Positions 3,184-36,263 of a stretch of DNA of 36,263 bases are shown piece by piece. A model generated the notes under the pieces. It ran no database searches and had not been told where the DNA came from. It worked only from the letters and a program-made list of their open reading frames with translations. The translations under genes and the position numbers were made by a program. Within the stretch, counting starts at the first letter, position 1. Each line of letters begins with the position of its first letter. Origin of the DNA: a virus. Lineage: Duplodnaviria > Heunggongvirae > Uroviricota > Caudoviricetes. The stretch covers positions 64,001 to 100,263 of IMG/VR virus record IMGVR_UViG_3300021256_000075, one strand, 5' to 3'.

Positions 3184-3214
3184 TTCCGTGCAGTATTCCG
3201 TGCAGTATTTGCAC
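3184..3214 (+). repeat. Left arm repeats of att site 1
   Basis: TTCCGTGCAGTA twice in tandem (3184-3207); GTGCA-N5-TGCAC palindrome at 3200-3214. Confidence 0.75.
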
Positions 3215-3291
3215 GTAACATATTACGCTGAACGAGAAATATTTATTGAAAAGAATAAGAAAACAAAAATGGAAAAGTAAGAATACAAAAG

Positions 3292-3325
3292 AAAAAAGCA
3301 GTGATTCAAACAATCACTGCTTTTT
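3292..3325. terminator. Bidirectional intrinsic terminator behind the tRNA 3' fragment
   Basis: AAAAAGCAGTGATT-caaac-AATCACTGCTTTTT perfect inverted repeat with A/T tails. Confidence 0.85.
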
Positions 3326-3330
3326 CTGTA

Positions 3331-3360
3331 TGGTGCGGTAGATGGGACTTGAACCCATAC
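3331..3360 (-). other. att core: 3' fragment of a tRNA gene, probably tRNA-Leu (not a full tRNA)
   Basis: Minus strand GTATGGGTTCAAGTCCCATCTACCGCACCA = T-arm, acceptor 3' strand, discriminator A and CCA; no D-arm or anticodon arm upstream; about 60 bp from the integrase stop. Confidence 0.85.
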
Positions 3361-3393
3361 AAAAACGAACTATTACTTCATTTTTTTAACATA

Positions 3394-3433
3394 TGCAGTA
3401 TTTCGTGCAGTAAATGCACTATTCCGTGTACAG
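3394..3433 (+). repeat. Right arm repeats of att site 1
   Basis: TGCAGTATTTCGTGCAGTAAATGCAC (3394-3419) matches 3189-3214 at 23 of 26 positions; a further TTCCGTG at 3422. Confidence 0.75.
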
Positions 3434-4573
3434 CCCCCTTGTTTTTGATGCCAAAGAGGTGTTGATCTTGTGCTGACGATCCGCAAATAACTCCACGTAA
3501 ACGGCGTGGCTAAATGCTGAAGTGCTATGGCCCATTCTGGATGCAAGTTCGTCTTCCGTTGCTCCAGATGTGGCGACCATTGTGGCATAATAGTGCCGTA
3601 AATCGTAAAAGCGCATCTGTTCCGGCAATTCAAGCGCTTTCCTAGTTCTTCGCCAGTACTTACAAATCATGCTTGGTTTAGTGGCTACTATCCTTGCGTT
3701 TTCTACGCGTTTTTTAAGCGTGTAGAGCTTCTGGAAGAATGCCCAGTCAACAGTAAGGGTTCTTACTCCGGCTTCTGTTTTAGGGGCTTTATTCACGTAT
3801 TTTCGCGTTTCGTCGCGCACTGTTGCTTTTGATACATCTATTATGCCGTATTCGTATGTTTCCCCATTCACGGAAATTGAAATAGGCTTTTCTGAAATGT
3901 CCTCCCAAGTGAGCGCATACACCTCAGACGGCCTCAGCCCTGCGGAAATCGTGAATGAACAGTATATGTAGAAGTCGGTGCATTCGTGTTGTTCTGCGTA
4001 CTCTAGAACGCGTTTGGCGAGGTCTTCTTGGAAAACGAGTTTTCCTTTCTTTTTCTGCTTGGCAATAGTGATGGCAGAAAGGTTCAATTCCGGGCAGTGT
4101 ATCGCCATAACCTTTTTAAGCAAAAAGTACTCGTTCCGCACTGTTTTCACGCTATGTGTTTTCGATCTGTAGTTTATCGCTGTCTGAATGTCAGTAACGG
4201 TTATTCCTTCAATGGGCCTTTCCATCAATTCTGGAAAGGCGTTTTTTCTTATAGAAATGTATGCCGGAATTGTGGATGGGGAATAGTTCTGCGTTCTGCA
4301 AGTTTCCACGAACATGTCAATAGCGTCTCCAAGTGTGATGGAGTTTTTCCAGTTTGTTTCTCCCTGCTCGTGTTTCGGTATCTGGTCAACTGGCATTCCC
4401 ATCTGTTTATATAGTTTCAAGCGTGTTCTGAATTCGGATGCCATTGCTTCTGCTTCCGTTGCCGTTGGGGCTACAAACGCCTCGTATCTTTTTCGCCCAT
4501 CTTCCCTGTATCCCACAAATACTGTTCTGCGTACACTGCCGGAAGGAAGCTCGCCTTTTTTCTTTCTACCCAT
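3419..4573 (-). CDS. int: Tyrosine integrase A
   Basis: GLRPSE (R), KAPKT (K), YDLRH, MGH, AVY catalytic motifs; N-terminal arm-binding-type segment. Confidence 0.95.
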   Translation of the reverse strand: MGRKKKGELPSGSVRRTVFVGYREDGRKRYEAFVAPTATEAEAMASEFRTRLKLYKQMGMPVDQIPKHEQGETNWKNSITLGDAIDMFVETCRTQNYSPSTIPAYISIRKNAFPELMERPIEGITVTDIQTAINYRSKTHSVKTVRNEYFLLKKVMAIHCPELNLSAITIAKQKKKGKLVFQEDLAKRVLEYAEQHECTDFYIYCSFTISAGLRPSEVYALTWEDISEKPISISVNGETYEYGIIDVSKATVRDETRKYVNKAPKTEAGVRTLTVDWAFFQKLYTLKKRVENARIVATKPSMICKYWRRTRKALELPEQMRFYDLRHYYATMVATSGATEDELASRMGHSTSAFSHAVYVELFADRQHKINTSLASKTRGLYTE

Positions 4574-5036
4574 TCAGATCTTCCTCCTTTGGAAGAAGCC
4601 CCGCTGTTTCGTAGTACTCAAAAGCCTCTTTCACGAATGATTCCGGCAAATCCGCTTCCTCTGCGAATTCCCAGTAATAGTGCAGTCCGTTCTTTAACTG
4701 TTCCCGAATCCATGCAATCGGGAGCAGTTTTTTTATTGCCCATTTCGTTGCCTTTCGTTCTGCAATCTCAATTCGATCATAGGGAGAATAACGATTGTAA
4801 AACCCTCCATACAGGCAATGCCCCAGTTCATGCGCTAGAGCGGCTTTTTCCTGCCTTCTTGGCAAGTTAGGAGCAAGAGCTATATAACACCTACCCTCTC
4901 CGTCTTCGATGCTTAGAGCGGCATTTTTCCGTAAATTAAAGGTATCTATCTGCACTCCTTTCCTTTCTGCTAGTTCGTATAAATCAGAGGTTTTTACGGA
5001 TTTTGAGATATCTGGCATAGCGCTTAACTTCTTCAT
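4566..5036 (-). CDS. ImmA/IrrE-family metallopeptidase (anti-repressor); start may be 5018
   Basis: LAHELGH (HExxH) and E..A..WA motif; sits between repressor and integrase. Confidence 0.88.
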   Translation of the reverse strand: MKKLSAMPDISKSVKTSDLYELAERKGVQIDTFNLRKNAALSIEDGEGRCYIALAPNLPRRQEKAALAHELGHCLYGGFYNRYSPYDRIEIAERKATKWAIKKLLPIAWIREQLKNGLHYYWEFAEEADLPESFVKEAFEYYETAGLLPKEEDLNG

Positions 5037-5310
5037 AGTCTTCGTCCGTTACTCCGTCAAGTCCGTTAAAAAGTGCAAATTTTATGTCGTCTTCGCTAAC
5101 TTCTCCCTTTGGCGTATCTATTGGTTCATAGCAAAGCACCGTCCCCGGGGACACGTTAAAAAAATCAGCTAACTTGCGCAAACGGTCGCCAGTCGGGTCT
5201 TTCTTCTGGTGCTCCCACTCGCTCACGGTAGGGTGTGACACGCCTATTTGAAGCGCCAGTTCTTTTTGTTGCAAACAGGCTCTTTCCCGTAGTTCCTTCA
5301 CTCTATTCAT
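4984..5310 (-). CDS. XRE-family phage repressor (ImmR-like)
   Basis: HTH LQQKELALQIGVSHPTVSEWEHQKKDP; short, no S24 peptidase domain. Confidence 0.9.
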   Translation of the reverse strand: MNRVKELRERACLQQKELALQIGVSHPTVSEWEHQKKDPTGDRLRKLADFFNVSPGTVLCYEPIDTPKGEVSEDDIKFALFNGLDGVTDEDYEEVKRYARYLKIRKNL

Positions 5311-5330
5311 AGTAGCACCTCCTCGCTCAC

Positions 5331-5451
5331 ATTATAGCATAAGCTAATTAGCTATATCAACAAAAACAATGTCGCTGTATTTATAGTGTTTTACTAAATT
5401 TAAAGTTTTCGAAAAATAGGGCTTTAAATTCAGCTAAGTTTATGCTATACT
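5331..5451. promoter_or_regulatory. Divergent promoters and operators of switch A
   Basis: Leftward TGcTATAAT (5331-5339) with TTGATA; rightward TGcTATACT (5443-5451); inverted pair TATAGCATAARCTWA at 5333-5347 and 5435-5449. Confidence 0.7.
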
Positions 5452-5478
5452 ATCTCACGTACGAGGGAGGTGAAATAA

Positions 5479-5706
5479 TTGAACAGATTACGAGAAGTTC
5501 GCATTGAAAAGAAAATGACTCAGAAAGATTTGGCTACCAAGGTTCACATTTCTATCCCGTATGTCTCCGACATTGAGAAGGGTAATAGAAGCGGAAGCTA
5601 TAAAACTCAGCTAAAAATTGCAAAAGCCCTTGGAGTAAAAAGAAGAGAAATATTCAAGGACGAGGACGAAGAGGAAGACGAAGATGGAATTAAGCAGGTT
5701 GGATGA
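5479..5706 (+). CDS. Cro-like XRE HTH protein
   Basis: MTQKDLATKVHISIPYVSDIEKGNR HTH, divergent from the repressor; TTG start after GGAGG. Confidence 0.85.
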   Translation: MNRLREVRIEKKMTQKDLATKVHISIPYVSDIEKGNRSGSYKTQLKIAKALGVKRREIFKDEDEEEDEDGIKQVG

Positions 5707-5896
5707 ACAATTGCTGATTCTCCGCAAAAGAGCAGGAATGACCGTTCCTCAGTTCGCAAAGTTGATAGACATGAACAGCGGAACACTTCAATACCGCTTG
5801 AACCACATTTCAACCTTTCGGCTTTCTGAGCTGTTGAGAATAGAAAAGGTTGGAAAAAAGTATGGCTTATCAGTGCTTCAAGCACTGGTTGCATAG
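5684..5896 (+). CDS. Small HTH protein
   Basis: RKRAGMTVPQFAKLIDMNSGTLQYRL HTH-like segment. Confidence 0.7.
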   Translation: MELSRLDEQLLILRKRAGMTVPQFAKLIDMNSGTLQYRLNHISTFRLSELLRIEKVGKKYGLSVLQALVA

Positions 5897-5918
5897 ATCA
5901 AAAAGAGGAGGAAGAAAC

Positions 5919-6254
5919 ATGGAAAAGTTTTCTTATCACGTCATGTCCACCTTCAAAAACGGCATTGAAACTGACCATTTCAAGGCCCGTGTGAAGTATC
6001 CCGAAGGGATTGAAAATCCCTACAGCATCGAGCTTACGATGAAGCCTACAGTTGCTCGTGATGGAAAAGTGAATGTCACCGATTTCGGCGATGGCTATGA
6101 TTACAACGACTTTTACAGCAACGATACAAACGAGAGGTTGAACAGAACGCTCATTGAGGAGTTGAACGTGCTGTACGCCAAAATTTCCAGTTTTACGATG
6201 GAAGTTTACAGTGAGAACGAGGCGAATAAGAAGCAGATGCGGAGGGCAAGCTGA
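5919..6254 (+). CDS. Hypothetical phage protein
   Basis: Strong RBS GAGGAGG before ATG 5919; coupled to the next gene. Confidence 0.7.
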   Translation: MEKFSYHVMSTFKNGIETDHFKARVKYPEGIENPYSIELTMKPTVARDGKVNVTDFGDGYDYNDFYSNDTNERLNRTLIEELNVLYAKISSFTMEVYSENEANKKQMRRAS

Positions 6255-6742
6255 TGACACTTTACGAGATTGACGAGGCAATAGAAAGCTGTTGGTTTCA
6301 AGCAACCGACAGAGAAACAGGGGAAATCAAGCTCGAAGCTCTTGACACCGACATGCTCGACCATCTGGAGATGGAGAGAGACAAGAAAATCGAGAATGTA
6401 GGCAAGTGGGTTAAGAGCCTTACGGCAGAACAGACCGCGCTTGAAAAAGAAGCAAGCGCACTGAAAGCAAGAGCGGCTTTGAACGAGAAGAAAATTGATA
6501 GTTTGAAGAAATGGCTTGCAATTGCACTGAACGGCAAGAAAGGGAAATTCGGAACTGTAAGCATTTCCTTCCGATCTTCCGAAAGCACCGTGATTGATGA
6601 TGAAAGCAGAATTCCAGATGCATTTATGAATATCAAAACGGTTAAAACGCCGAATAAAACTGCCATCAAAGAGGCGATTTGTTCTGGCGCAAGGATTGAA
6701 GGTGCTCACATTCAGTCGAATCTATCGACCATTATCAAGTAG
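6254..6742 (+). CDS. Siphovirus Gp157-like protein
   Basis: MTLYEI start, coiled coil, C-terminal P.KTAIKEAI..G..IEGAHI pattern; position before the SSAP. Confidence 0.8.
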   Translation: MTLYEIDEAIESCWFQATDRETGEIKLEALDTDMLDHLEMERDKKIENVGKWVKSLTAEQTALEKEASALKARAALNEKKIDSLKKWLAIALNGKKGKFGTVSISFRSSESTVIDDESRIPDAFMNIKTVKTPNKTAIKEAICSGARIEGAHIQSNLSTIIK

Positions 6743-6756
6743 GAGGAGGAAGAAAC

Positions 6757-7428
6757 GTGGTAACTCTTATTTACGGCAAGAGCGGCTCTGGGAAAAGCCG
6801 CTCAATGAAAAACTTAAACCCGGACGAGGTCCTTTTGATCAATGTGCAGAAGAAGCCCCTGCCCTTCCGGGGAAAATTAAGCCATGTGTTTGTTCCCGTT
6901 GCAAAAGAAAACATGAGTGTTGTTGACAACATTATCTGGTGCATTAACAAGGCTCTGCCGAAGTATCCGAGCATCAAGGTTATCGTGATAGACGACGCCG
7001 GGTATCTGATGACTCAGATATTTATGGCAAAGCACAAACAGAAGCAGGGGAGCGCAAGTTTCGACTTGTACAACGAAATTGGAGACGATTTCTGGAAGCT
7101 GTTCAACTACCTCAACACTTTGCCGGAAGCAGTAAACACATACGTGCTTATGCACGAAGATGTGTCCGACTACGGCGATGTTAAGTTACGGACTATCGGG
7201 AAACTGCTTGACCAGAAAGTTTCCCTTGAAGGAATGGTTACGGTGTGTTTGAGGTGTATGACGGATGGCAAAACACACTGGTTTCAGACTCAGAACACAG
7301 GAAACGATATCTCAAAAAGCCCGGAAGAAATGTTTCCTTCAGACAAAATAGACAACGATCTTCAGTATGTAGATACAACAATTCGAGAGTATTACGGAAT
7401 GAACAACAGTACAAAGGAGAGTGCATAA
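6757..7428 (+). CDS. Phage AAA ATPase, Sak4-like single-strand annealing protein
   Basis: Walker A GKSGSGKS, IVIDDAGYL Walker B, GKLLDQKVSLEG. Confidence 0.8.
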   Translation: MVTLIYGKSGSGKSRSMKNLNPDEVLLINVQKKPLPFRGKLSHVFVPVAKENMSVVDNIIWCINKALPKYPSIKVIVIDDAGYLMTQIFMAKHKQKQGSASFDLYNEIGDDFWKLFNYLNTLPEAVNTYVLMHEDVSDYGDVKLRTIGKLLDQKVSLEGMVTVCLRCMTDGKTHWFQTQNTGNDISKSPEEMFPSDKIDNDLQYVDTTIREYYGMNNSTKESA

Positions 7429-7429
7429 A

Positions 7430-8035
7430 ATGTTTTTACCAAGCGACTATGACAAGGCGCAGGCGTACCAGTACGGCAGTAACTCCAACAGGCTTCCAGT
7501 TGGTGGCTACGTTTGCAACATTCTGAATGTGGAAGAAAAACCCACGCAGAGCGGTTCGATGATGGTTGTTGTGAGCTACGACATTGCGGAAGGTGAGTAC
7601 GCCGGATTCTTCCGCAAGCGTTACGAGGCTGACAAGAAGGACAACCCTTACGGAGCAAAATGGCGCGGCACGTATACGCTGTTCGTATGCAACAAGGACG
7701 GAAGCACAAACGGATGGTTCAAGGGGTTCATGACCAACTGGGAAAAATCAAATAACAGGCCGCTCAACAAAAATGCTGATTACTCCCAGATGAAAAACAC
7801 GCAAATTGGCTTGATTGTACGGGAGGAAGAATTCGAGTCTCAAAGTGGTGCAATCATGACTACTACACGCGCATGTAATTCTCTCCCGGTTGAAGCGGTG
7901 AGACTTGGAAAGTTCGAACTTCCGCAGAAGCGCACACTTCAGAGCAACAATTCAAGCACTGCTACTTCTTCCAATGTTACTGCAAGTTCGTTTGAAACTA
8001 CTGTTGTAGATGATGATAGCGATCTGCCGTTCTAA
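7430..8035 (+). CDS. Phage single-stranded DNA-binding protein (DUF669-like)
   Basis: LPVGGYVCNI start, acidic DDDSDLPF C-terminal tip, position after Sak4. Confidence 0.75.
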   Translation: MFLPSDYDKAQAYQYGSNSNRLPVGGYVCNILNVEEKPTQSGSMMVVVSYDIAEGEYAGFFRKRYEADKKDNPYGAKWRGTYTLFVCNKDGSTNGWFKGFMTNWEKSNNRPLNKNADYSQMKNTQIGLIVREEEFESQSGAIMTTTRACNSLPVEAVRLGKFELPQKRTLQSNNSSTATSSNVTASSFETTVVDDDSDLPF

Positions 8036-8036
8036 G

Positions 8037-8064
8037 GGGATAGGGCGAAAGCCCTTCCCTGTTT
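8037..8064 (+). terminator. GC-rich GAAA-loop hairpin, possible weak terminator
   Basis: GGGATAGGGC-GAAA-GCCCTTCCC followed by TGTTT. Confidence 0.45.
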
Positions 8065-8076
8065 AAGGAGGATTCT

Positions 8077-8919
8077 ATGGAATGGTTCAAGATGCGGATG
8101 ATCTGGGGTAAGTCAGTCAAACGCCTTTCCGATGCCGAAGCCGGAAGATTTATTAAAGCCATTTATGAATTCATGGATGACGGCAAAGAATACGATGGAA
8201 GCGGACGAGAAGAGCTGATGATTATTCAAGCCTTGGAAACTCTGCGCCAAGAGCGTGATGAATTCCAGATGGAAGAAGAACTGCAAAAGCAGAAGAAAGA
8301 AAAGCTTTCCGAAACCAGAAGACAAGCCGTGATGAAGCGATGGGAAAAGCAGAAAACCGATACAAATACGGATACAAATACGGATACAAATGTAATACAA
8401 AAAAATACAAAAGATACAAACGATACAAATTGTAACTTTTGTAATACAAACGAAAATTTGTATGATTTTGTAAGACAGAATAAGAATAAGAATAAGAAAG
8501 AGATATATGAAAAAGAAGAAGAAGAAAAACGCGCGCGCGAGGGAACACCTTCATTCGGTTACGGATTGGGAAGCATGCTGAAGGATGAGGACTTGCAGAA
8601 GGGCATTGAGGAGCAACAAGCCGTTGACCGTATAACAGTTACGTGGGAGGACTGCGGATGCAGATTCAACGCCACGGAAGAAAGAGAGATGCATGAGCTT
8701 CTCACAAAATACACAGAAGAACAGATAAAAAAGGCGATTGAAACAGCAAACGGTTGTAACGCTCGGGGAAATTGGGGAATGAACTATGTAAAAGCAATAT
8801 TGGAGGGAAGAAACGCATATGGACGAGGTAGTAGAACTGCTCAAGGCAGGGGATGTGCACCAAGCTATGGCTTTGGCAATGGAGAAAAGCCGGACTGGTA
8901 TCCAGAAGAAATCGGATGA
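8077..8919 (+). CDS. Phage replication initiator (DUF6291-like N-terminus, DnaD-like C-terminus)
   Basis: LSDAEAGRFIKAIYEF N-domain; central low-complexity iteron region; IKKAIETA...NYVKAIL C-terminus. Confidence 0.8.
   Translation: MEWFKMRMIWGKSVKRLSDAEAGRFIKAIYEFMDDGKEYDGSGREELMIIQALETLRQERDEFQMEEELQKQKKEKLSETRRQAVMKRWEKQKTDTNTDTNTDTNVIQKNTKDTNDTNCNFCNTNENLYDFVRQNKNKNKKEIYEKEEEEKRAREGTPSFGYGLGSMLKDEDLQKGIEEQQAVDRITVTWEDCGCRFNATEEREMHELLTKYTEEQIKKAIETANGCNARGNWGMNYVKAILEGRNAYGRGSRTAQGRGCAPSYGFGNGEKPDWYPEEIG
8359..8500 (+). repeat. Iterons / putative replication origin inside the initiator gene
   Basis: Eight ATACAAA copies (GATACAAATACG tandem), an inverted TTTGTAT at about 8457, then AATAAG x3 in an AT-rich tract. 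Confidence 0.7.
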
Positions 8920-9745
8920 TGAGCAGGAAACAGAAGAAGAACGGTTTGCACGCACAAAAGCTATGGCACAGTTCAAAGCTGAAAGGGAAGCACAGAGATA
9001 TAACGAGTTGGAAGAAGTTTCCACTGATGGCATTGAATGCCCGAAATGCAAAAATAAGGGCATGATCTGTGTTATTGATACTGCTTATAACAACATTCCG
9101 AGTACGCGGTATGTTAAATGCAGTTGCTCAGAAGCAAGAATGAATCTGAGGCGCATAAAGGCATCCGGCTTGGAGGATGAATTGAAGCGGTGCACATTTG
9201 AAAATTTCCACACAGAAGAACCGTATCAGAAAATGATGCTAGAAAAGGTGAAAGAGTTTCTGAACGATCAAGAGCCGTCGTGGTTGTTCCTTGGAGGGCA
9301 AGTCGGCGCAGGGAAAACACATCTTTGTACAGCGGTTTGCGGTGTTCTGCTGATGGAAAGGCAGATTCCAGTAAAGTACATGCTTTGGAAGGAAGAAAGC
9401 ACAAGACTGAAAGCTTTGATAAATTCAGAAGATTACGCGGAAGAAGTAAACAAATATAAAACCGTTCCTGTTCTGTATATCGATGACTTCTTCAAAAAAC
9501 AGCGGAGCTTGGATAAGAGTTCAATTCCAACAGAAGCGGATGTAAATCTGGCGTTTGAAATCATCAACGCTAGGTATTTAGATAAATCGAAAATAACAAT
9601 TATCTCATGCGAATGGACACTTGAAGACCTTCTTTCATTTGACGAAGCTACAGCTTCAAGAATTTATGAGAGAGCAAAAAAGCACTGGATATCAATAAAA
9701 AGAGACCCGAAATTTAACTACAGGATAAGGAGAGAACCTGCATGA
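8819..9745 (+). CDS. DnaC/IstB-like helicase loader ATPase
   Basis: CPKC...CSC zinc motif, Walker A GQVGAGKTH, Walker B LYIDDFFK, IINARY. Confidence 0.9.
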   Translation: MDEVVELLKAGDVHQAMALAMEKSRTGIQKKSDDEQETEEERFARTKAMAQFKAEREAQRYNELEEVSTDGIECPKCKNKGMICVIDTAYNNIPSTRYVKCSCSEARMNLRRIKASGLEDELKRCTFENFHTEEPYQKMMLEKVKEFLNDQEPSWLFLGGQVGAGKTHLCTAVCGVLLMERQIPVKYMLWKEESTRLKALINSEDYAEEVNKYKTVPVLYIDDFFKKQRSLDKSSIPTEADVNLAFEIINARYLDKSKITIISCEWTLEDLLSFDEATASRIYERAKKHWISIKRDPKFNYRIRREPA

Positions 9746-10236
9746 ATGTTTTTGAAATTCCCGGCAAGCCGCGTGGAAAACAGCGGACTATCCCCAATCC
9801 AAACGGGGGTAGACCGTTCACGCCGGAGCAAACAATCGAGTATGAGAAACTAGTTCGGTTGATGTTCCGTTCAGCAAATCCGGGAGTAAAGCCCTATGAA
9901 AAAGGCGTTCCTGTTCGGATTACTATCAAAGCGATGTTTAAAACGCCAAAGTCAGCAAGCGAAAGACAAAGAAAGCTGATGGTGGCGGACGAGCTACGGC
10001 CCACAAAAAAGCCGGATGCAGACAATATCGAGAAAATCATCTGGGATGCTCTGAAAGGTGTTGCGTGGGAGGATGATGCGCAAATCGTGGAAAGTCACTG
10101 CGCGAAATACTGGAGCAGTGAAGACTATGTAACGGTGATGATAGACGAGGCGGATATGCACGAAGTAGAGAAAGCACTCGAAGAGTATTACAAGAATCAT
10201 CCAGAGGATGAGGAGGAGGAAAAATATGATTGGTGA
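9742..10236 (+). CDS. rusA: RusA-family Holliday junction resolvase
   Basis: IPGKPRGKQR, KPDADNIEKIIWDALKGVAWEDDAQIV. Confidence 0.92.
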   Translation: MNVFEIPGKPRGKQRTIPNPNGGRPFTPEQTIEYEKLVRLMFRSANPGVKPYEKGVPVRITIKAMFKTPKSASERQRKLMVADELRPTKKPDADNIEKIIWDALKGVAWEDDAQIVESHCAKYWSSEDYVTVMIDEADMHEVEKALEEYYKNHPEDEEEEKYDW

Positions 10237-10399
10237 GTTTATCGAGAGTATCAAAGCACTTTGGGCCTTGAAAGCATTCCGGCCTATTGTGGCACTGGAT
10301 TTGGTGCTGATGGTTTTATTCAGCTTGTATGTACTGCTGATTGGTTACGCTTTCATTGTGGGATATGTGCAGGACTTGAAGACAAAGAAAAACCAGTGA
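10226..10399 (+). CDS. Small membrane protein
   Basis: Hydrophobic stretch IVALDLVLMVLFSLYVLLIGYAFIVGY; strong RBS. Confidence 0.65.
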   Translation: MIGEFIESIKALWALKAFRPIVALDLVLMVLFSLYVLLIGYAFIVGYVQDLKTKKNQ

Positions 10400-10404
10400 G
10401 GAAA

Positions 10405-10842
10405 ATGATGACTGAAGAACAGATGAGGCAAGCAAAGGCAGTCCTTTCCGAGTATAGGACGATACTGATACGGATACAGGCCAAAGAGCGGAGAATAAAA
10501 GAGCTAGATGATATTGCCACTGGCGCGACCTCAAAATTTGAGGCTACCAGAACGTCAGGCACAAGCGCAAAATCGAAGCTTGAATATGCCACAATCAAAA
10601 AAATTGACTTGGTACAGCAAATTGAGGAGTCGCGAAACGATCTGCTAGAAAAGCGGTTACGAATTGAAACCGCAATCGACCAAATAGAAGATCAAGATCA
10701 AGCTATGCTGTTGGAAAGCAGATACATTGACGGATATCGTTGGGAACAGGTAAACGATATCATGCATGTATCCGAAACGACTTCAAGGCGCATCTTCAAA
10801 AACGCGTTAGAAGCCTTCTGGGCGCATTATCAAGCCGTATAG
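10405..10842 (+). CDS. ArpU/RinA-like (sigma-70 region 4 type) transcription regulator
   Basis: AK..LSEYR N-terminus, coiled coil, LLESRYIDGYRWEQV..IMHVSETTSRRIFKNAL C-terminal HTH. Confidence 0.8.
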   Translation: MMTEEQMRQAKAVLSEYRTILIRIQAKERRIKELDDIATGATSKFEATRTSGTSAKSKLEYATIKKIDLVQQIEESRNDLLEKRLRIETAIDQIEDQDQAMLLESRYIDGYRWEQVNDIMHVSETTSRRIFKNALEAFWAHYQAV

Positions 10843-10869
10843 ATAGAATGTAAGGGGAGGAAGAAAAAA

Positions 10870-28135: not shown

Positions 28136-28663
28136 GTGAAAAATATGACTGCTGATAAGAAGATAATCTGCAAAGACTGCCGTTGGTGGCGGCCTGGCTT
28201 CATAGAAGGTGAAGATAATTTTAATCCTCCGCGGTGTACTTTACACGATGCACCGATGGAACATGATCGTACATGTTCTGATGCAAAGGAGAAAGCCAAA
28301 ACGGCTGCTGACGAAAGGATCGAGAAGCTGCTGAACCGCTTCGGGCAGACGATATCAAACCTGCCAGATTATTATCCACCTTCAGACAGAGACAGTGCAT
28401 CTCGTGCTGCATTCGATTTTTATACCCAAAATGGTATGCCGGAGAGACCTTGGTTACCGTTAATGGTAAACCAGATTTTTATCTGTCATCTCTGTGACGT
28501 GATCGACAGGTTGGAGATTGCGCTGGAAACCGCCTCCAGGTGGATGCCGTGCTATCTCTGCAAAAATGCGAGCGAGTGCAGCAAGAAGGGGATGGAAGAT
28601 CTGCACTGCGTAAGACCGTGTGAGGAGAAGACAATCAATGATTACATGCTTCACGACCAGTGA
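28136..28663 (+). CDS. Hypothetical protein with Cys modules at both ends
   Basis: ICKDCRWW...RC...TCS and MPCYLCKNASEC...C. Confidence 0.65.
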   Translation: MKNMTADKKIICKDCRWWRPGFIEGEDNFNPPRCTLHDAPMEHDRTCSDAKEKAKTAADERIEKLLNRFGQTISNLPDYYPPSDRDSASRAAFDFYTQNGMPERPWLPLMVNQIFICHLCDVIDRLEIALETASRWMPCYLCKNASECSKKGMEDLHCVRPCEEKTINDYMLHDQ

Positions 28664-28682
28664 AGAAGGGAGTGGATCTTAA

Positions 28683-28988
28683 GTGCAGGTATTTATCTCG
28701 CAGCCGATGAGAAACCGCAGCGATGAGGAGATCAGAGCTGAACGCAGGAAGATCATGGAGTATGTGCAAAAATTCTATCCGGATGAAAAAGTCGAAGAGA
28801 TCAAAAGCTTTTTCGACATGGATATCCAGAGTAAGAATACACCGCTCAAAATGCTGGGGATGAGCCTGGAACTGCTTGCCGAGGCAGATGTGGCGGTGTT
28901 TGCGGATGGATGGTCCATTGCCCGAGGATGTAGGATCGAGCATGAGGTGTCAGAACTGTACGGCATCCGTATTTTCGATCTGGAGTAA
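28683..28988 (+). CDS. DUF4406 / nucleoside 2-deoxyribosyltransferase-like protein
   Basis: VFISQPM, ELLAEADVAVFADGWSIARGCRIEHEVSELYG. Confidence 0.75.
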   Translation: MQVFISQPMRNRSDEEIRAERRKIMEYVQKFYPDEKVEEIKSFFDMDIQSKNTPLKMLGMSLELLAEADVAVFADGWSIARGCRIEHEVSELYGIRIFDLE

Positions 28989-28999
28989 AGGAGAAACGA

Positions 29000-29419
29000 A
29001 TGAAACTGAAATGCAAACTGGATGATGGTGCAAAAGCACCGGTGCGGGCGTATCCGACAGATGCCGGGCTGGATCTCTTTTCCAGGCAGATCCACGTCAT
29101 CCGTCCGAGGCAGTGGAGAAATTTTAAGACCGGCGTGCACGTGGAGATCCCTGCAGGCTATTACGGCAAGCTGGAGTCAAAGAGCGGACTGATGTCAAAG
29201 TCCGGAATCATCTGTCCTGGGGGAATCATCGACAGCGGATACTCTGGGGAGATCTCGGTCACGCTGTACAACCTATCGGATCAGCCGTATCGGATCTCCA
29301 TCGGGGACAAGGTCTGTCAGCTGCTGATCCTCCCCTGTGAGCTGCCTGAGGTAGATGTGGTGGAAGAAATTGATTCCGGCGAGCGGGGAGACGCCGGATT
29401 CGGAAGCACCGGAAAATAA
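29000..29419 (+). CDS. dut: Trimeric dUTPase 2
   Basis: AGLD, KSGL, GIIDSGYSG, KVCQLLI, RGDAGFGSTG. Confidence 0.93.
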   Translation: MKLKCKLDDGAKAPVRAYPTDAGLDLFSRQIHVIRPRQWRNFKTGVHVEIPAGYYGKLESKSGLMSKSGIICPGGIIDSGYSGEISVTLYNLSDQPYRISIGDKVCQLLILPCELPEVDVVEEIDSGERGDAGFGSTGK

Positions 29420-29501: not shown

Positions 29502-29522
29502 GACGTGGTCAAAACGTGGTCA
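29502..29522 (+). repeat. Left arm repeats of att-like site 2
   Basis: ACGTGGTCA at 29503 and 29514. Confidence 0.75.
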
Positions 29523-29775
29523 GATGGTTTCTGCGGAGACGATTATGCATTGATTCGGATGCATTTATACATCGAAGAATATAGATATTCTCGGACATGT
29601 GTCACAGGGCTCTGTAAGATTATACACTTCCGCGCTGTTTTCAGATGAGAACTTCCCTGAAGTTGGAAAACGGATAGATTTTAAAAGGAATGCTTGAAAG
29701 AAGCCGCTTGTTGCCTGCCTTTGTCGGCTTCCTGAGTGCGCAGAAAACGCATGAAAATAACCATGATGCATCCCA

Positions 29776-29806
29776 GACGTGGTCAAAACGTGGTCAAACG
29801 TGGTCA
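29776..29806 (+). repeat. Right arm repeats of att-like site 2
   Basis: ACGTGGTCA at 29777, 29788 and 29798; the 21-mer GACGTGGTCAAAACGTGGTCA is identical to 29502-29522. Confidence 0.75.
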
Positions 29807-29999: not shown

Positions 30000-31187
30000 T
30001 TATATTTTCCACTTATCCAGAAATGAAACGATTTTTTCACGCTGTTCGGCCGCACGCTCGTTTGAGATATGCGCGTAAAGCTCGATGGTCATCCGGATGT
30101 CTGTATGCCCCATAAAGTACTGCGCTGATTTGATATCGACATCTGCATCATAAAGAGCGGTGGCAAATGTGTGCCGGAGATCGTGTGCACGAATGGAAAA
30201 AATTTTCCTTTCCGTTTCTTCTTCGCTTGACGCATTATTCTTCTTTTTTTCGGTATCGGTTCTTCTCCCTCTCTGATTCACAGGCTCGTTGTTCATAATC
30301 CGGGTCATTGCTGTGTTGAAGCCAGTTATTCCATCGACAAACCCATGCTCTGTAAGCAGTTTTCCTTTGGCACTGACACAGATGTATCCGGATCTCTTTT
30401 CTTCCGGGATGGTACACAGTGCCTCATAAAGTGCGTCACAAATCGGGATGGTACGTATGCCGGCACTTGTTTTTGCCCGGCCTTCAATATATGTCTGGTT
30501 GTTTATAAGTACAGCGACCTGTCTGACGTAGACGTTGCGTTTGACGAGATCGATATTTTTCCAATCCAGGGCGATCATCTCTCCTCGTCTGAGACCGGTG
30601 TACAGCATGATTATAATCCACAGTCCAGCCCGATACTGCATCCAGTGTGCATTAATAAAGTCGATTTCTTCCCTGGATAACGCCCGGTGCGTTCCTCCCA
30701 GCTTGCCGCTTGGAATCTGCAAGCTGTCAGAAGGATCTGTCACGATCAGTTTGTTTTTACAGGCTTTCGAAAAAACCAGGTGGATTGCCCGATAATATTT
30801 TTTGATAGAAGCCTGCGTTTTGCCAGGAGCATAACTCACAAGGAGCTTCTGGAGATCCACTTCTTTTACGCTTGAAACCTTCATTTTTCCGATGTTGCTT
30901 TTTATCCAGTTATATGGGATGGCATCTCTTTTTTTATAGTGTTGATTGATGCTTGTCCTATATGTCACCAGGCAGTGATCAACCCATTCGTTAACAGTAA
31001 GTTTTTTGTCATCAGGAACAAGACCCTGATTCAGCTTGGCCTTGTATTCATCCCGTTTCTCTTTGGCCTCGGTTTTGGTCCTGCCATAGAAGGATTTGCG
31101 GATCGGCTTGCCGGAATCATCCATGCCGATCGTCAGCGTGACCTGCACCCGATTATCCGGCCGGGTGCCTTTTGATTTTTTAGCCAT
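30000..31187 (-). CDS. int: Tyrosine integrase B
   Basis: RKSFYGRTKTEA arm-binding N-terminus, TGLRRGE, KTSAG, HDLRHTFAT, MGH, ELYAH. Confidence 0.95.
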   Translation of the reverse strand: MAKKSKGTRPDNRVQVTLTIGMDDSGKPIRKSFYGRTKTEAKEKRDEYKAKLNQGLVPDDKKLTVNEWVDHCLVTYRTSINQHYKKRDAIPYNWIKSNIGKMKVSSVKEVDLQKLLVSYAPGKTQASIKKYYRAIHLVFSKACKNKLIVTDPSDSLQIPSGKLGGTHRALSREEIDFINAHWMQYRAGLWIIIMLYTGLRRGEMIALDWKNIDLVKRNVYVRQVAVLINNQTYIEGRAKTSAGIRTIPICDALYEALCTIPEEKRSGYICVSAKGKLLTEHGFVDGITGFNTAMTRIMNNEPVNQRGRRTDTEKKKNNASSEEETERKIFSIRAHDLRHTFATALYDADVDIKSAQYFMGHTDIRMTIELYAHISNERAAEQREKIVSFLDKWKI

Positions 31188-31374
31188 CGGTCATCCACTC
31201 CGGATGGTCGATGCAGAGGTTGAGTGCCTGATTGAGCATCTCGTGCTGGATGTCTGAGATCAGGACAACGCAGGTCCCATCCCTTCCGGCGATCCGGACA
31301 CTCTCTCCGTGGTGAGCCCTGTACATGTAGCTCCGCAGATCCAGTGCAAACTCTTCAGGTCTGATGGTCATCAT
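31180..31374 (-). CDS. Phd/YefM antitoxin-like small protein, no adjacent toxin
   Basis: GGAGG RBS then MMTIRPEEFALDLRSYMYRAHHGESVRIAGRDGTCVVLIS, matching the Phd/YefM pattern; stop overlaps the int B start. Confidence 0.55.
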   Translation of the reverse strand: MMTIRPEEFALDLRSYMYRAHHGESVRIAGRDGTCVVLISDIQHEMLNQALNLCIDHPEWMTDG

Positions 31375-31735
31375 TTTTATTTTCCTCCCTGTTCGTGTTT
31401 TTGCTGACAGATCCTTCACAGCGCTGCAGCTGCTGGTAAACGGTTCCCAGCACAACCGCCTTTCCCTGGTCATCAAGCTTTGCGTATGCCTGCACCAGAT
31501 CCTTGTACTCGGGATTTGCAACCGGATAGCGGTCATCCCGTTCGAGCAGCCAATCTGTCGATACGTTAAAGTAGTCGGCAATCTGAACAATCTTTTTGGT
31601 GGATGGGTTGGATCTCCCGGTTGACCAGTCGGAAAGGTTCCCGGATGAGATCCCGACTTTTTTTGAAAAGTCCAACTTGTTCATCCCGTGCTTCATAAGC
31701 AGCAACCAAATGCGGTCATACATAACAGTCGTCAC
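31355..31735 (-). CDS. XRE-family repressor B2
   Basis: HTH FSKKVGISSGNLSDWSTGRSNP...IADYFNVSTDWLL. Confidence 0.88.
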   Translation of the reverse strand: MTTVMYDRIWLLLMKHGMNKLDFSKKVGISSGNLSDWSTGRSNPSTKKIVQIADYFNVSTDWLLERDDRYPVANPEYKDLVQAYAKLDDQGKAVVLGTVYQQLQRCEGSVSKNTNREENKNDDHQT

Positions 31736-31765
31736 CTCTTCTTGTATTTTAAAAAATCAATGATG

Positions 31766-32137
31766 TTACACGGCAGTCTTTTTTTCCTCGGTCTGGAGCC
31801 ATTCCTGCTCCCGCCGCTGCTCCTGAATGAGCGTTCCGCGTATCAGGTCCTTCCCATCCTCAGAAAGAGAACGGTATTTTTCAATCAATCGAATTTCCTG
31901 CTCACTGAAATAGCGTTCATCTTCAAGTGGTTCTGGCGATTTTCTTCCAGTGCAGAGAAATTCAATGCTGACACCCAGGTACTCGGAAATGGCATCGAGA
32001 TACTTGGCGGGAGGATTGGTTCCCCGCCGTTTCCAGCCACTGATGATGCCTGAATCGATTTTCAGCTTTTTTGACAGACCGTAACCGGATTTCCCTTTTT
32101 CCTCCATAAGAGAAAACATACGCTCGCAGATGGTCAT
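31766..32137 (-). CDS. XRE-family repressor B1
   Basis: HTH LSKKLKIDSGIISGWKRRGTNP...ISEYLGVSIEFL. Confidence 0.88.
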   Translation of the reverse strand: MTICERMFSLMEEKGKSGYGLSKKLKIDSGIISGWKRRGTNPPAKYLDAISEYLGVSIEFLCTGRKSPEPLEDERYFSEQEIRLIEKYRSLSEDGKDLIRGTLIQEQRREQEWLQTEEKKTAV

Positions 32138-32180: not shown

Positions 32181-32238
32181 TTGACAGGCTCGTGAAATTG
32201 CTCTATAATACCGTCAATGATGATAATATTATTATCAT
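32181..32238 (+). promoter_or_regulatory. Rightward consensus promoter of switch B plus palindromic operator
   Basis: TTGACA-17-TATAAT (32181-32209); perfect ATGATAATA-T-TATTATCAT at 32220-32238. Confidence 0.85.
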
Positions 32239-32277
32239 TTTACCACAAAGCGGTTGAGCAAATCAACGGGAGGAAGC

Positions 32278-32523
32278 ATGGAAAAATTTGTAGAACTTGG
32301 TTTGAAAATGTTGACGGACGCACCGGATGCAGAGCGTTTTCACCGGCGGCATCTGCTGCTGATGACATGCCGGAAGTTTCTGAATGCATACGATGCGCTC
32401 ACGGAAGAAGAAAAGGAAATGGATGACGTAAAGGCGATATACGGGGGCGTATACGCCGCTCTCCTGCACTACAACCTCGGTGTGGTGATTTGCTCCGCAC
32501 GCAGAAAGGAGGGGTGGCATTGA
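32278..32523 (+). CDS. Hypothetical protein, first rightward gene of switch B
   Basis: GGAGG RBS before ATG 32278. Confidence 0.7.
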   Translation: MEKFVELGLKMLTDAPDAERFHRRHLLLMTCRKFLNAYDALTEEEKEMDDVKAIYGGVYAALLHYNLGVVICSARRKEGWH

Positions 32524-32723
32524 AAAGAGAAGAGTTGATTATCGCAAGGCGGAAGAATCTCCTGTCGCAGTTTGAGATTGCGCAGAAGCTGGGGATCTCC
32601 CAGGCAACCTATTCGCTGATCGAGAATGGATACCGGCAGCCGTCTACGCATGTAGCTTCTGAGCTGCACCGGCTGGTCGGCATCCCGGAGAATTACTTTG
32701 AGATTGAACCAAAGGTAGGATGA
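32520..32723 (+). CDS. Cro-like XRE HTH protein
   Basis: LSQFEIAQKLGISQATYSLIENGYRQPS; TTG start after GGAGG. Confidence 0.85.
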   Translation: MKREELIIARRKNLLSQFEIAQKLGISQATYSLIENGYRQPSTHVASELHRLVGIPENYFEIEPKVG

Positions 32724-32812
32724 ATTCTGCCGGTATCGGATCACGAAAAAACCGTTTATCTGCGAGTGGTGTTTATGTGTATACAGTATACAGCTGGTAT
32801 GGAGGGTTTGCT

Positions 32813-33247
32813 ATGGCGAACAACGCAGATAACGCCATTAAAGTATGGCGGAATGAAGCAAAAATGACAGCCGGAAGGCTTGCGGATGCTATCGGCTGTG
32901 ATGTGACCACGATATACCGATATGAAGCCGAAAAAATCAAGCCGACACCTGATGTGATGTATCAGATCTGCAAGGCACTCGGGAACCTGTCCCACTGGTG
33001 TACCTGGATGAGTCTGGAGTTCCCCGGATCCTATGGTATTGTCCATCCGCGCGTCCCGAATCTGGATGCAGCTGAAACCGTGCTGTCCCTGTATGCCGGG
33101 ATCATGGATGCGGAGAAAATGCGGCAGGATGTGTTTCGGGGATTTGCCGAGGGAGATCTGGAAGACGAAACAGAAAGCAGGCTGAAAGAAATCCTGGCGA
33201 AGCTGTCAGGGCTGTCACAGGCACTGCTGAATAAACTGAATGTGTAA
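32813..33247 (+). CDS. XRE HTH regulator with C-terminal extension
   Basis: MTAGRLADAIGCDVTTIYRYEAEKIKP; GGAGG RBS. Confidence 0.8.
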   Translation: MANNADNAIKVWRNEAKMTAGRLADAIGCDVTTIYRYEAEKIKPTPDVMYQICKALGNLSHWCTWMSLEFPGSYGIVHPRVPNLDAAETVLSLYAGIMDAEKMRQDVFRGFAEGDLEDETESRLKEILAKLSGLSQALLNKLNV

Positions 33248-33259
33248 GGAGAATAACCA

Positions 33260-33532
33260 ATGCCTGCACCAAAACTTTTTTTGACCAGCGCCGATATATC
33301 CGGCATCACAGGAATGAGCAAACGCTCGGCGCAGTATGTCCTTAACGCGCTCGACCGGAAGGGGATGACCGTCCACTACCAGCACGGAACGCGCAGCAAG
33401 CTGGTGGATGTAGATCTGTTTACGGCGTACCTCTGTGAGCAGGACGGACAGGATCCGGCGGTCCGGAAAAAAGGCATCATGGAGTATCTGAGAGAGGCCG
33501 GAAGCCGCCATACACGGAAAGAAATCAGCTGA
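33260..33532 (+). CDS. HTH protein, possible excisionase/directionality factor
   Basis: FLTSADISGITGMSKRSAQYVL (MerR/Xis-like winged HTH) in the early operon. Confidence 0.6.
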   Translation: MPAPKLFLTSADISGITGMSKRSAQYVLNALDRKGMTVHYQHGTRSKLVDVDLFTAYLCEQDGQDPAVRKKGIMEYLREAGSRHTRKEIS

Positions 33533-33565
33533 CTTCTTTTAATTTGCAGAAAATTCTCGTAATTT

Positions 33566-33616
33566 AAAATTTTTTTATAAAAACCAGTTGACAATTATCC
33601 TATAATGGTGTATCAT
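33566..33616 (+). promoter_or_regulatory. sigmaA promoter, twin copy 2
   Basis: TTGACA-17-TATCAT with ATTAT-N3-ATAAT in the spacer; near-identical to 22405-22454. Confidence 0.8.
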
Positions 33617-33670
33617 GTACCCATCAAGCAACGGAACACCAACCACGACAGATTTTTGAGGAGGTACACG

Positions 33671-33961
33671 ATGATGATGAATAAAAATGAATGGCTCGAC
33701 AGCCTGACCGATGAGAACTACGAGATCTACGATGATCTCAGATACCAGCTCAAGGATATTGAGGCTGAGATCGCTGAGAAAAATGAATTTCTCAGCAATC
33801 CGCTCGACTTCCTCAATGACGAGGACTGGGATACTCAGAGCGACATCAACCGTTACACCGATGCGGTTGAAGAAGAGATTTCCCACCTTGAAGATGAGGC
33901 GGATGAGATCTATCAAAAACTGCTCGACTTCGAGGCCGCCAACGGCTTCGAAGCGGCATAA
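33671..33961 (+). CDS. Very acidic small protein, candidate DNA mimic
   Basis: By manual count about 30 D/E and 6 K/R in 96 aa; GAGGAGG RBS; first gene after the twin promoter. Confidence 0.7.
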   Translation: MMMNKNEWLDSLTDENYEIYDDLRYQLKDIEAEIAEKNEFLSNPLDFLNDEDWDTQSDINRYTDAVEEEISHLEDEADEIYQKLLDFEAANGFEAA

Positions 33962-33974
33962 GAGGAGGGATACA

Positions 33975-34586
33975 ATGGAGCAGGTAAAGCTCCCACAGGC
34001 AGAGATTGATTTTGAAGAATCCGCCCATTTGTACACGATCAATGGGCGAATCCTTCCATCCGTGACCCAGATCATGTCACCGCTGTCAGCGATGATTTAC
34101 GGGAATGTCCCGTCACCGACACTGGCCGAAGCGGCCGACAGGGGAAGCCGGGTTCACGAACAGGTGGAACATATAGTCAAATACGGGATAGAAGAAACGG
34201 ACCCTGATACGGACGGGTATGTACAGGCGTTCAAGACGTTCTCGGCAGCTTACAGCCCGACATGGGCGGCATCCGAGTACAGGACCTATCACAAGATCCT
34301 CCTGTACGCCGGAACGCTGGATCTTATCGGGCATGTCACTCCGGATGACGGGACCGGCTTTGATGTGGTGGATCTGAAGACCACGTCCAAGCTATACAAG
34401 ATGATGCTGTCCACGCAGCTCGGTGCGTATGCGGAGGCCCTGAAATCCCATGGTCTGAAGGTCCGCAATGTTTACGGGCTGCAGCTGAAGCGGGACGGCA
34501 ATTATGTGCTGGAACATCTGGAACCGGATTACAAGCTGTTCCTTCACTGCATGGCGGTCTATAACGCTGCCAAGTATGATGGGTAA
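33975..34586 (+). CDS. PD-(D/E)XK exonuclease (Cas4/exonuclease VIII-like phage nuclease)
   Basis: HLY..NG..LPSVT, RGSRVH, YAGTLD, VDLKT, QLGAY. Confidence 0.85.
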   Translation: MEQVKLPQAEIDFEESAHLYTINGRILPSVTQIMSPLSAMIYGNVPSPTLAEAADRGSRVHEQVEHIVKYGIEETDPDTDGYVQAFKTFSAAYSPTWAASEYRTYHKILLYAGTLDLIGHVTPDDGTGFDVVDLKTTSKLYKMMLSTQLGAYAEALKSHGLKVRNVYGLQLKRDGNYVLEHLEPDYKLFLHCMAVYNAAKYDG

Positions 34587-34596
34587 GGAGAAAAAA

Positions 34597-35262
34597 ATGA
34601 CAGAACAGGAAAAGAGACTTGAAGAAAATGGCCAGCTGATGGTCAGACAGGCGGAAGAGCTGACTGTCCAGACAGATGAGGATTATGCCAGCGCAGGAAA
34701 GGTGCTGGTTGAGATCAAGACCCGAATCAAGCAGGTCCAAGACTACTGGAGCCCGCTGAAGAAGAACGCCTCGGAAGCGCACAAGGCGCTCTGCAACCGG
34801 GAAAAGGAGATGCTCCAGCCGCTGAAGAATGCGGAGACTGTCATCAAGAAGACGATGCTGGCCTATACGACAGAGGTCGAAAGGAAGCGGAGAGCCGAAG
34901 AGGAGGAGATCCGGCGGCGGCAGCAGGAAGAAGCGGAGCGGCTTCTGGCGGATGCGGTCCAGGCACAGGAAAGCGGCGATGAGATGTCCGCCCAGATGAA
35001 TCTCGCCATGGCCCAGATGGTTAACGAGATGACCCCGATGGATGTATCCTCCCCGGCACCAAAGGCATCCGGAACGTCCATCAAGAAGGTGTGGAAGGCA
35101 CGGGTGACAAATCCGACCGAAGTTCCCGCATACATCAACGGCATGGAAATCCGGCAGATCGACATAGCTGCCCTGAACCGGATCGCAAAGATGTCAGGCG
35201 GAAAGATGACGATTCCGGGCGTGGAATTTTATGAGGATTCCGTGATGACGGTAAGGACCTGA
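34597..35262 (+). CDS. Coiled-coil phage protein (Gp157/Gam-like position)
   Basis: Long coiled coil and C-terminal W.ARVTNP..VP...IPGVEFY. Confidence 0.7.
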   Translation: MTEQEKRLEENGQLMVRQAEELTVQTDEDYASAGKVLVEIKTRIKQVQDYWSPLKKNASEAHKALCNREKEMLQPLKNAETVIKKTMLAYTTEVERKRRAEEEEIRRRQQEEAERLLADAVQAQESGDEMSAQMNLAMAQMVNEMTPMDVSSPAPKASGTSIKKVWKARVTNPTEVPAYINGMEIRQIDIAALNRIAKMSGGKMTIPGVEFYEDSVMTVRT

Positions 35263-35401
35263 TTTTTTATTTACGCAGGATTCACGTAAACACGAAAAAA
35301 CGGGCCAAATTTACGTGATAATTTGTTGGTAGTGATTCTATCAACCAAAGTTTTAAAAACGCCACAGGGTGGCAAAGAATGATAATTTGGGGGTATCTGA
35401 T

Positions 35402-36263
35402 ATGTACGACGATTATGGCAACGATTACGGCGTGATGCCGACACCGGCACAGACGGTCCAGGAGCAGGGGTATCACCAGGGCGGCAACGCCCTCGCAGCA
35501 AACAGCGAAGCCCGGGTTGTAGCTGAAGTAAAGGCGCAGGTCCTGATGGCCCGGCAGTTTCCGCGTGATGTCATGTACGCACGGGACAGAATCCTGAGAG
35601 AGTGCCAGCGGCCCAGCCTCGCAGAAAAGGCGGTGTACAGCTTCGTACGTGGGAAGGACACGGTCAGCGGACCTTCCATCCGGCTGGCCGAAGTGCTGGC
35701 CAGAAACTGGGGCAACTGCACCTTCGGCTATGAAGTCCTCGACCGGAAGATCCCGCCTGAACCGGGTGCCGCCGGAACATCCATCCTCCGGGCGTATGCG
35801 TGGGATCTCGAAACGAACACATACATCTCAAGGCAGTTTGAGGTGAAGCACTGGCGGCAGACCAAATCAGGCGGATACGCCCTGAAAGAGGACAGGGACA
35901 TCTACGAGCTTGAATCCAACATGGCCTCCCGCCGGATGCGGGCATGCATCCTCCAGATGATCCCGGGAGATCTGACCAGTGATGCGGTCAAGGCATGCCG
36001 GATGACGGAATCCAGCGGACTGACAGAGCGCATGAAGGACAAGAATCAGCGGGAAGCCCTGATCAGCAAGACGGTTGCAATTTTTGAGAAGATGGGTGCA
36101 AGCCTTTCGGATCTCGAAGATCTGCTGCAGGCCAAGCGTGATGACTGGCAGGCCGACCAGATGCTCCGCCTCAAAGAGGTCATCAACGCCATCCGTGACA
36201 ACGTGACTCCGATCGGTGATTTCTTCCCGCGTCTCGCCTCACTTGAAAAGTCCAGCCTCGTCA
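35402..36263 (+). CDS. Phage protein, putative single-strand annealing/recombination protein, 3' truncated (not in ORF track)
   Basis: Frame open from ATG 35402 to the window end; ARQFPRD, VSGPSIRLAEVLARNWGN, AWDLETN motifs; follows an exonuclease. Confidence 0.7.
   Translation, partial: MYDDYGNDYGVMPTPAQTVQEQGYHQGGNALAANSEARVVAEVKAQVLMARQFPRDVMYARDRILRECQRPSLAEKAVYSFVRGKDTVSGPSIRLAEVLARNWGNCTFGYEVLDRKIPPEPGAAGTSILRAYAWDLETNTYISRQFEVKHWRQTKSGGYALKEDRDIYELESNMASRRMRACILQMIPGDLTSDAVKACRMTESSGLTERMKDKNQREALISKTVAIFEKMGASLSDLEDLLQAKRDDWQADQMLRLKEVINAIRDNVTPIGDFFPRLASLEKSSLV

Follow-up and report, generated by a model that had tools for sequence, protein, structure and literature searches.

Inter-genome chimeric contigs, which arise at repeats common to co-occurring genomes, are a known artifact of short-read metagenome assembly. 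Two further described systems provide a background for the DNA analyzed here, namely, the int-ImmA-cI/Cro lysogeny switch of the ImmR/ImmA type, found in ICEBs1 and in phi105-like phages, and the free-standing HNH/NUMOD4 homing endonucleases of phages, such as I-HmuI of SPO1/SP82 and the seg/mob genes of T-even phages. The window, by which we mean the whole analyzed stretch of 36,263 nucleotides, covers bases 64001-100263 and hence the final 36 kb of one 100,263-bp contig from sheep rumen (IMG/VR record IMGVR_UViG_3300021256_000075). A first-pass annotation had described in it two lysogeny modules, A and B, each with its own integrase gene and its own site resembling a phage attachment site (attP), and had considered a single phage with dual integration and dual immunity, a cointegrate or hybrid of two phages, and a passenger devoid of structural genes, with chimeric assembly as a caveat. 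If the dual-module genome were true, it would represent a phage integrating at two loci under two immunity systems. Our analysis confirmed that two phages are involved and turned the caveat into the likeliest explanation, based on a 458-bp exact repeat, a switch in base composition, and the connection seen in relatives: the contig probably consists of two ordinary temperate phages that were joined by assembly at a repeat that they share.

This repeat is the core of an 868-bp direct duplication of an HNH cassette, which is present as copy R1 at contig positions 18518-19385 and as copy R2 at contig positions 79114-79981. In window coordinates, which are used for all features listed, the copy under study and its core are as follows.

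15114-15981, plus strand: repeat R2, an HNH/NUMOD4 homing-endonuclease gene plus an 87-amino-acid (aa) DUF6440 open reading frame (ORF), 97% identical to contig 18518-19385.
15201-15658, plus strand: 458-bp exact core, the probable false junction of the two phages, identical to contig 18605-19062 without gaps.

On either side of the perfect core, the flanks of the two cassette copies diverge by 6-7% in an ungapped alignment. We refer to the DNA around the two copies as Z (contig 1-18.5 kb), Y (contig 19.4-67 kb), A (window 3.2-15.1 kb), and B (window 16-36 kb). The plus strand is purine rich along nearly the entire contig. By composition, the four segments fall into two groups. GC content is 0.484 in Z and 0.469 in B versus 0.433 in Y and 0.432 in A, and the tetranucleotide correlation is 0.94 for Z with B and likewise 0.94 for Y with A, as opposed to 0.66-0.77 across the groups. 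The first principal component changes sign at approximately 15-18 kb and 78-81 kb of the contig, the locations of both repeat copies. As a result of this partition, the 26 kb between the two integrase genes is half of A-type and half of B-type composition, the intA side pairs with the virion block at contig 26.7-50 kb, and the intB side pairs with the first 18 kb of the contig.

Gene content follows the same division. The contig opens with tail-fiber genes and a lysin gene and holds a complete packaging, head, and tail block in one copy at 26.7-50 kb; a second large terminase gene lies approximately 26.5 kb downstream of intB, in a part of a re-assembly that is absent from this contig. A nine-gene cassette of lysin and end genes is present in two diverged, collinear copies (contig 6-13.7 kb and 44.3-56.4 kb) with 40-80% protein identity. 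Integrase, dUTPase, HNH, and lysin genes as well as this end cassette are all duplicated on the contig, and each is single copy in either of the proposed phages, Y/A and Z/B.

The re-assembly, scaffold_165 of the European Nucleotide Archive (ENA; 149,135 bp, same BioSample), contains both integrases. The exact core makes up 458 bp at the start and 458 bp at the end of this scaffold and occurs once more in the middle; minus the duplicated end, the length of the scaffold is 148,677 bp, the sum of 60,596 bp (Y/A) and 88,081 bp (Z/B). The presence of the core at head, tail, and middle is the path expected from two circles that share one graph node. The Logan contigs of the source run, X1, break at the core boundaries, and the graph branches there, dividing the region into three pieces.

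5500-15091: A side, one Logan contig, depth 16.4.
15201-15658: core, a separate 458-bp Logan contig, depth 42.5.
15895 onward: B side, a 31-kb Logan contig, depth 17.9.

Since the depth of the core exceeds the sum of the depths of the two arms, at least one further genome in the sample must carry the cassette. As a separate observation, run X1 also has loose ends at 14742 and 16151 that match nothing on the contig. The study, which comprises 20 metagenomes, used among others short-insert libraries (2x150 bp, tight 250-bp insert), and its runs include SRR873596 (PMC4158751). Because the exact repeat of 458 bp is longer than this insert, no read or read pair of such a library bridges both of its sides.

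The alternative connection is found in two contigs from other assemblies, L037 (ERZ12302817) and L038 (BioSample SAMN02144231, a different BioSample of the same study). Both are 96-98% identical to the Y/A phage, and in both the left flank of the A side leads into the cassette and from there into the right flank of the Y side. The left flank of L038 is identical to window 14883-15103 at 215 of 221 positions, compared with 53 of 221 for the Z-side flank, and that of L037 matches window 14958-15100 at 138 of 143 positions. On the right, L037 continues into the sequence of contig 19.5-27.6 kb (Band 7, ThyX, and terminase; 90-97% identity in the aligning segments) and L038 into contig 20176-21822 (97.9%). 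The columns that distinguish the two cassette copies agree with this, being of R2 type to the left of the core and of R1 type to the right in both relatives. More distant relatives, whose large terminases are 69-75% identical, carry homologs of the A-side RusA, ArpU-like, SH3, and dUTPase genes no more than 10 kb upstream of the terminase gene, and no lysis or end-cassette genes were found within those 10 kb. The order in the relatives therefore indicates the natural order of phage Y/A: intA, early genes, HNH cassette, pre-terminase genes, terminase. Relatives found through the Band 7 protein were also considered as evidence for synteny across the repeat and were set aside as too mosaic.

These data lead us to propose a model for the origin of the contig. 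Phage Y/A would be a circle of approximately 60.6 kb, made up of contig 19063-79200 plus the core, and would carry the attP site of module A (attP1, with a tRNA-Leu target), intA, ImmA, cI/Cro, and replication genes, in addition to the virion block found at contig 26.7-50 kb. Phage Z/B would be a circle of approximately 88.1 kb, running from window 15659 onward through approximately 48 kb that lie off this contig and then through contig 1-18604, and would carry attP2, intB, and two repressors along with separate replication genes and a terminase of its own. Through the common 458-bp core, both circles would meet in one node of the short-read graph, forming a figure eight, and an assembler leaving this node on the unused edge would move from one circle to the other and merge both phages into a single path. 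Such a switch at the core gives the concatenated order of the linear contigs, in which intA lies 26.6 kb upstream of intB with early and accessory genes in between. Taken by themselves, Y/A is a normal 60.6-kb temperate siphophage and the intB phage, Z/B, is also complete; both are ordinary in architecture, and the artifact is of a well-known kind.

The features by which a chimera is recognized are an exact repeat that cannot be bridged, a branching graph, a partition by composition and, for Y/A only, the alternative connection, all of which were found. As in known repeat-induced chimeric contigs, the repeat exceeds the insert size, contigs break at the repeat, the core is at least as deep as the sum of the arms, the re-assembly ends on the repeat, composition switches there, and relatives have the other connection. 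Unlike in those cases, three assemblies agree on the connection, and the two arms have nearly equal depth.

These differences are among the points that weigh against a false join. The same connection is present in this contig, in scaffold_165, and in NODE_140 (148,208 bp), which is 100% identical over 16 kb and whose sample of origin is not recorded. Had each assembler chosen its exit from the core at random and independently, such a three-way match would be somewhat unlikely, but the three assemblies may draw on the same reads and on similar heuristics and thus do not count as independent. The arm depths of 16.4 and 17.9 are close to each other, as one molecule would also give. Moreover, two 8-kb mate-pair libraries were made in the study as well and were possibly used for this contig. 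As judged from the alignment, the perfect core within diverged flanks shows recent DNA exchange, which would make the formation of a cointegrate by a single crossover mechanistically easy. Finally, no independent sample was found in which the Z/B phage has the alternative connection.

The agreement of the assemblies, the similar depths, and the core, which bears the mark of recent recombination or of homing-associated gene conversion, all speak for a real cointegrate. In this scenario, the two phages replicate in the same host cells, and one crossover within the HNH cassette turned their circles into a single 148.7-kb molecule, holding both lysogeny modules, both attP sites, and both sets of virion genes in the very form that the assemblers reconstructed. 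Two unrelated temperate rumen phages, between which the cassette had recently moved, would then have yielded a molecule that persisted in the cells. We consider this unlikely, even if it fares best among the alternatives. The connection is one that no read or pair of the 250-bp-insert libraries could prove, and the scaffold ends exactly on the core boundaries, which points to a graph node left unresolved rather than to a resolved circle. In addition, the arm depths differ by approximately 9%, or approximately 3 sigma by our estimate under plain Poisson counting, and the close relatives show the other connection. A 149-kb molecule would also be too long for a capsid built to hold 60 or 88 kb, and a cointegrate could therefore only be a transient intracellular form. 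Weighing these points, we favor the assembly join and infer that the molecules in the sample are separate circles and not a cointegrate.

Two other runs of the same sample, X2 and X3, contain 0.33 and 0.26 of the A-side words, respectively, and are not listed among the runs that contain the B-side stretch. We rejected them as evidence for separate replicons: their contigs on the window are patchy and many are only 95-99% identical, which marks them as mosaic relatives and not as this phage.

For users of these records, the consequence is that neither the 100-kb record nor the 148- to 149-kb re-assemblies should be treated as one viral genome until they have been divided at window 15201-15658 and contig 18605-19062. 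The probable false join affects genome size, gene counts, host prediction, and the statement that there are two integrases. What remains real are two complete temperate phages of Clostridia, one of them targeting tRNA-Leu(GAG), which share a near-identical HNH cassette.

Turning to the lysogeny modules themselves, all of the components that had been ascribed to module A (att1, intA, ImmA, repressor/Cro, and recombination and replication genes) were recovered where they had been placed.

3184-3424, minus strand: att1, attP-like, with TTYCGTGCAGTA arm units on both sides of a 30-nucleotide (nt) core and a terminator hairpin after it.
3419-4573, minus strand: integrase A, a tyrosine recombinase (PF00589, E=2e-10), box II YDLRH.
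4566-5036, minus strand: ImmA-like metallopeptidase (Peptidase_M78, PF06114).
4984-5310, minus strand: helix-turn-helix (HTH) repressor (PF01381).
5479-5706, plus strand: Cro-like HTH protein.
5479-15109, plus strand: early operon of phage Y/A, beginning with the Cro-like HTH gene, of a composition like that of contig 19.4-67 kb.

Three copies of TTYCGTGCAGTA occur in the window, all of them confined to att1, where 0.17 would be expected by chance, and the units flank the 30-nt core at 3331-3360 on both sides. In many Clostridia (among them Christensenellales, Oscillospiraceae, and rumen metagenome-assembled genomes), tRNA-Leu(GAG) ends in exactly this 30-nt sequence; the exact 30-mer was found at more than 120 loci in Clostridia genomes and formed the 3' end of tRNA-Leu(GAG) in all six that were checked. 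The layout of att1 is that of an attP site, with putative integrase binding to the repeats, and not that of attL or attR, because arm repeats are present on both sides and only a 30-nt fragment of the tRNA 3' end is present, with no full tRNA; ARAGORN detected no complete tRNA gene in the window. Among the 80 genome loci examined, no intA homolog adjoined tRNA-Leu(GAG), and no integrated relative was found.

After the Cro gene, the early operon of Y/A encodes Gp157, AAA_24, an SSB-like protein, a replication initiator, a DnaC-like loader, RusA, and an ArpU-like regulator, followed by an SH3 protein, dUTPase 1, a Lar-like protein, and small ORFs. The match to Lar-like restriction alleviation proteins is weak (133-aa ORF at window 12958-13359; phrog_599, E=1e-8). 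For a 247-aa ORF on the A side, the related-locus search returned no relatives.

Module A resembles the temperate siphophages of Firmicutes with an ImmR/ImmA-type switch, sharing with them a tyrosine integrase, a Peptidase_M78 anti-repressor protease, and a divergent repressor/Cro pair. Genes for recombination and replication follow, as do RusA and an ArpU-like late regulator, and the attP site contains a tRNA 3' end. It differs from them in that it has no nucleotide match in 50,697 phage records and in that a tyrosine of intA occupies the position of the first histidine of box II. In the same megablast search, neither half of the window had a match.

Module B was likewise found as it had been described, with att2, intB, two repressors, a plus-strand HTH gene, and exonucleases, in the same orientation as module A. 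Only the label "Phd-like" for the 64-aa ORF had to be dropped, as this ORF has no match in Pfam or PHROGs.

29503-29806, unstranded: att2, attP-like, with 2+3 ACGTGGTCA arm repeats around a core of approximately 250 bp.
30000-31187, minus strand: integrase B, a tyrosine recombinase (PF00589, E=1.3e-23).
31180-32137, minus strand: 64-aa ORF without a family match, then two repressor-like HTH genes (31355-31735 and 31766-32137, both minus strand).
32217-36263, plus strand: early operon of phage Z/B, with a small ORF, genes for two HTH proteins and two exonucleases, and a phrog_3657 gene truncated where the contig ends.
32490-33247, plus strand: HTH genes of this operon.
33975-35262, plus strand: exonuclease genes of this operon.

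The five copies of ACGTGGTCA, two at 29503-29522 and three at 29777-29806, occur nowhere else, with 0.19 expected. Direct repeats on both sides of a core beside an integrase gene correspond to the layout of a lambda-type attP, with binding of the integrase again putative. In both att regions, then, the two-sided repeats that had been reported are confined to their sites and far above chance. The accompanying claim that both integrases keep their catalytic motifs stands in full for intB, which has the complete R-H-R-H-Y set (RRGE, HDLRH, GH, and LYAH all present), and in part for intA, in which the R, R, H, and Y residues are present and tyrosine replaces the first histidine of box II (YDLRH instead of the usual HxxR). 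IMG/VR contains a single relative of IntB, which has 46% identity and lies on a short contig. The re-assembly extends the Z/B operon past the end of the contig with a replication organizer, a DnaC-like loader, RusA, a DNA methylase, a dCMP deaminase, ThyX, and SSB.

The two modules lie approximately 26 kb apart in the same orientation, and, as had been noted, virion genes are missing from the interval: none of the ORFs between 5.4 and 30 kb of the window had a match to a virion family in Pfam or PHROGs. The interval is occupied by early and accessory genes. The same-facing integrases and this virion-free interval would fit prophages that lie in tandem or nested within a bacterial chromosome, or a module A that is a virion-gene-less satellite in a helper prophage. 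We regard both as very improbable. For tandem prophages, att1 would not be expected in the attP state in which it is found, with no full tRNA in the window; a search for partner copies found no second copy of either att core on the 100-kb contig. Annotation of parts of the contig and of the re-assembly revealed no host genes; on the contig, the annotated parts consist of phage genes alone. As for a satellite, the early region of A amounts to a complete replication module of a phage, which in relatives runs into the terminase. The suggestion of a passenger devoid of structural genes is not supported either; each module has its own terminase and virion block elsewhere on the 149-kb re-assembly. 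A satellite resembling phage-inducible chromosomal islands was tried for module A and rejected, as there is no flanking att repeat and the relatives continue to the pre-terminase genes and terminase.

Least probable of all is one stable temperate phage of approximately 149 kb with two evolved integration and immunity modules, the dual-immunity genome of the first-pass annotation, which has in its favor that both modules look intact, that both att sites have the attP layout, and that no host genes were seen but which would need two terminases, two sets of tail and lysis genes, and two replication modules, in two sharply different base compositions that switch at the repeat, while the relatives of one half have a single-module arrangement.

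The shared cassette resembles the free-standing homing endonucleases of phages in that a small HNH+NUMOD4 ORF is placed among genes unrelated to one another. The two copies, from co-occurring phages that are otherwise unrelated, are 97% identical, with a perfect tract like that left by homing with co-conversion; the endonuclease activity is predicted, and no other relative in IMG/VR exceeds 52% identity. To judge by its sequence, the perfect tract in diverged flanks looks like the result of a recent homing event or of gene conversion involving two phages with a common host, and the near identity of the cassette suggests that both phages meet in the same host cells. With the window's own record left out, a 42-mer of the core had no match in viral or metagenome contigs.

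A gene-junction motif, GGTGAAGTRGRATGA, which combines a ribosome-binding site with an overlapping stop and start, occurs in six copies versus 0.41 expected, at window positions 14931, 15105, 15972, 16273, 26663, and 27399, and brackets the HNH cassette on both sides. This motif may be a preferred point of insertion or recombination.

Each phage also has an accessory region upstream of its attP site.

3-3183, plus strand: end of the accessory region of phage Y/A, with the C-terminal part of an SNF2-type helicase, PAPS-reductase/DUF3440, a 100-aa ORF, and a ParB-like protein (Pfam; PHROGs phrog_2159 for the ParB-like protein).
15983-29419, plus strand: accessory region of phage Z/B, upstream of attP2, with a methyltransferase, small ORFs, SufS, SufU, and dUTPase 2 (Pfam; composition like that of contig 1-18.5 kb).
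20727-21947, plus strand: SufS (Pfam).
21937-22374, plus strand: SufU (Pfam).
29000-29419, plus strand: dUTPase 2 (paralogy with dUTPase 1; ENA Pfam).

In Z/B, the cysteine desulfurase is the sole ORF of more than 250 aa between the modules. It looks intact (Aminotran_5, E=1e-131) and is followed by the NifU-like scaffold gene, the pair occupying window 20727-22374 without other suf or isc genes. The Y/A block of helicase, PAPS-reductase/DUF3440, small ORF, and ParB-like genes lies directly upstream of attP1 and may be cargo for DNA modification or anti-defense. Both phages furthermore carry their own sets of nucleotide-modification genes. In Y/A, the set immediately precedes the terminase (contig 23543-26289) and comprises ThyX, a ParB-like protein, and a glucosyltransferase of the TAGT type; in Z/B, it comprises a 675-aa DNA methylase, a dCMP deaminase, and ThyX (L044, 10488-15105). 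With these sets, the DNA of each phage may contain modified bases.

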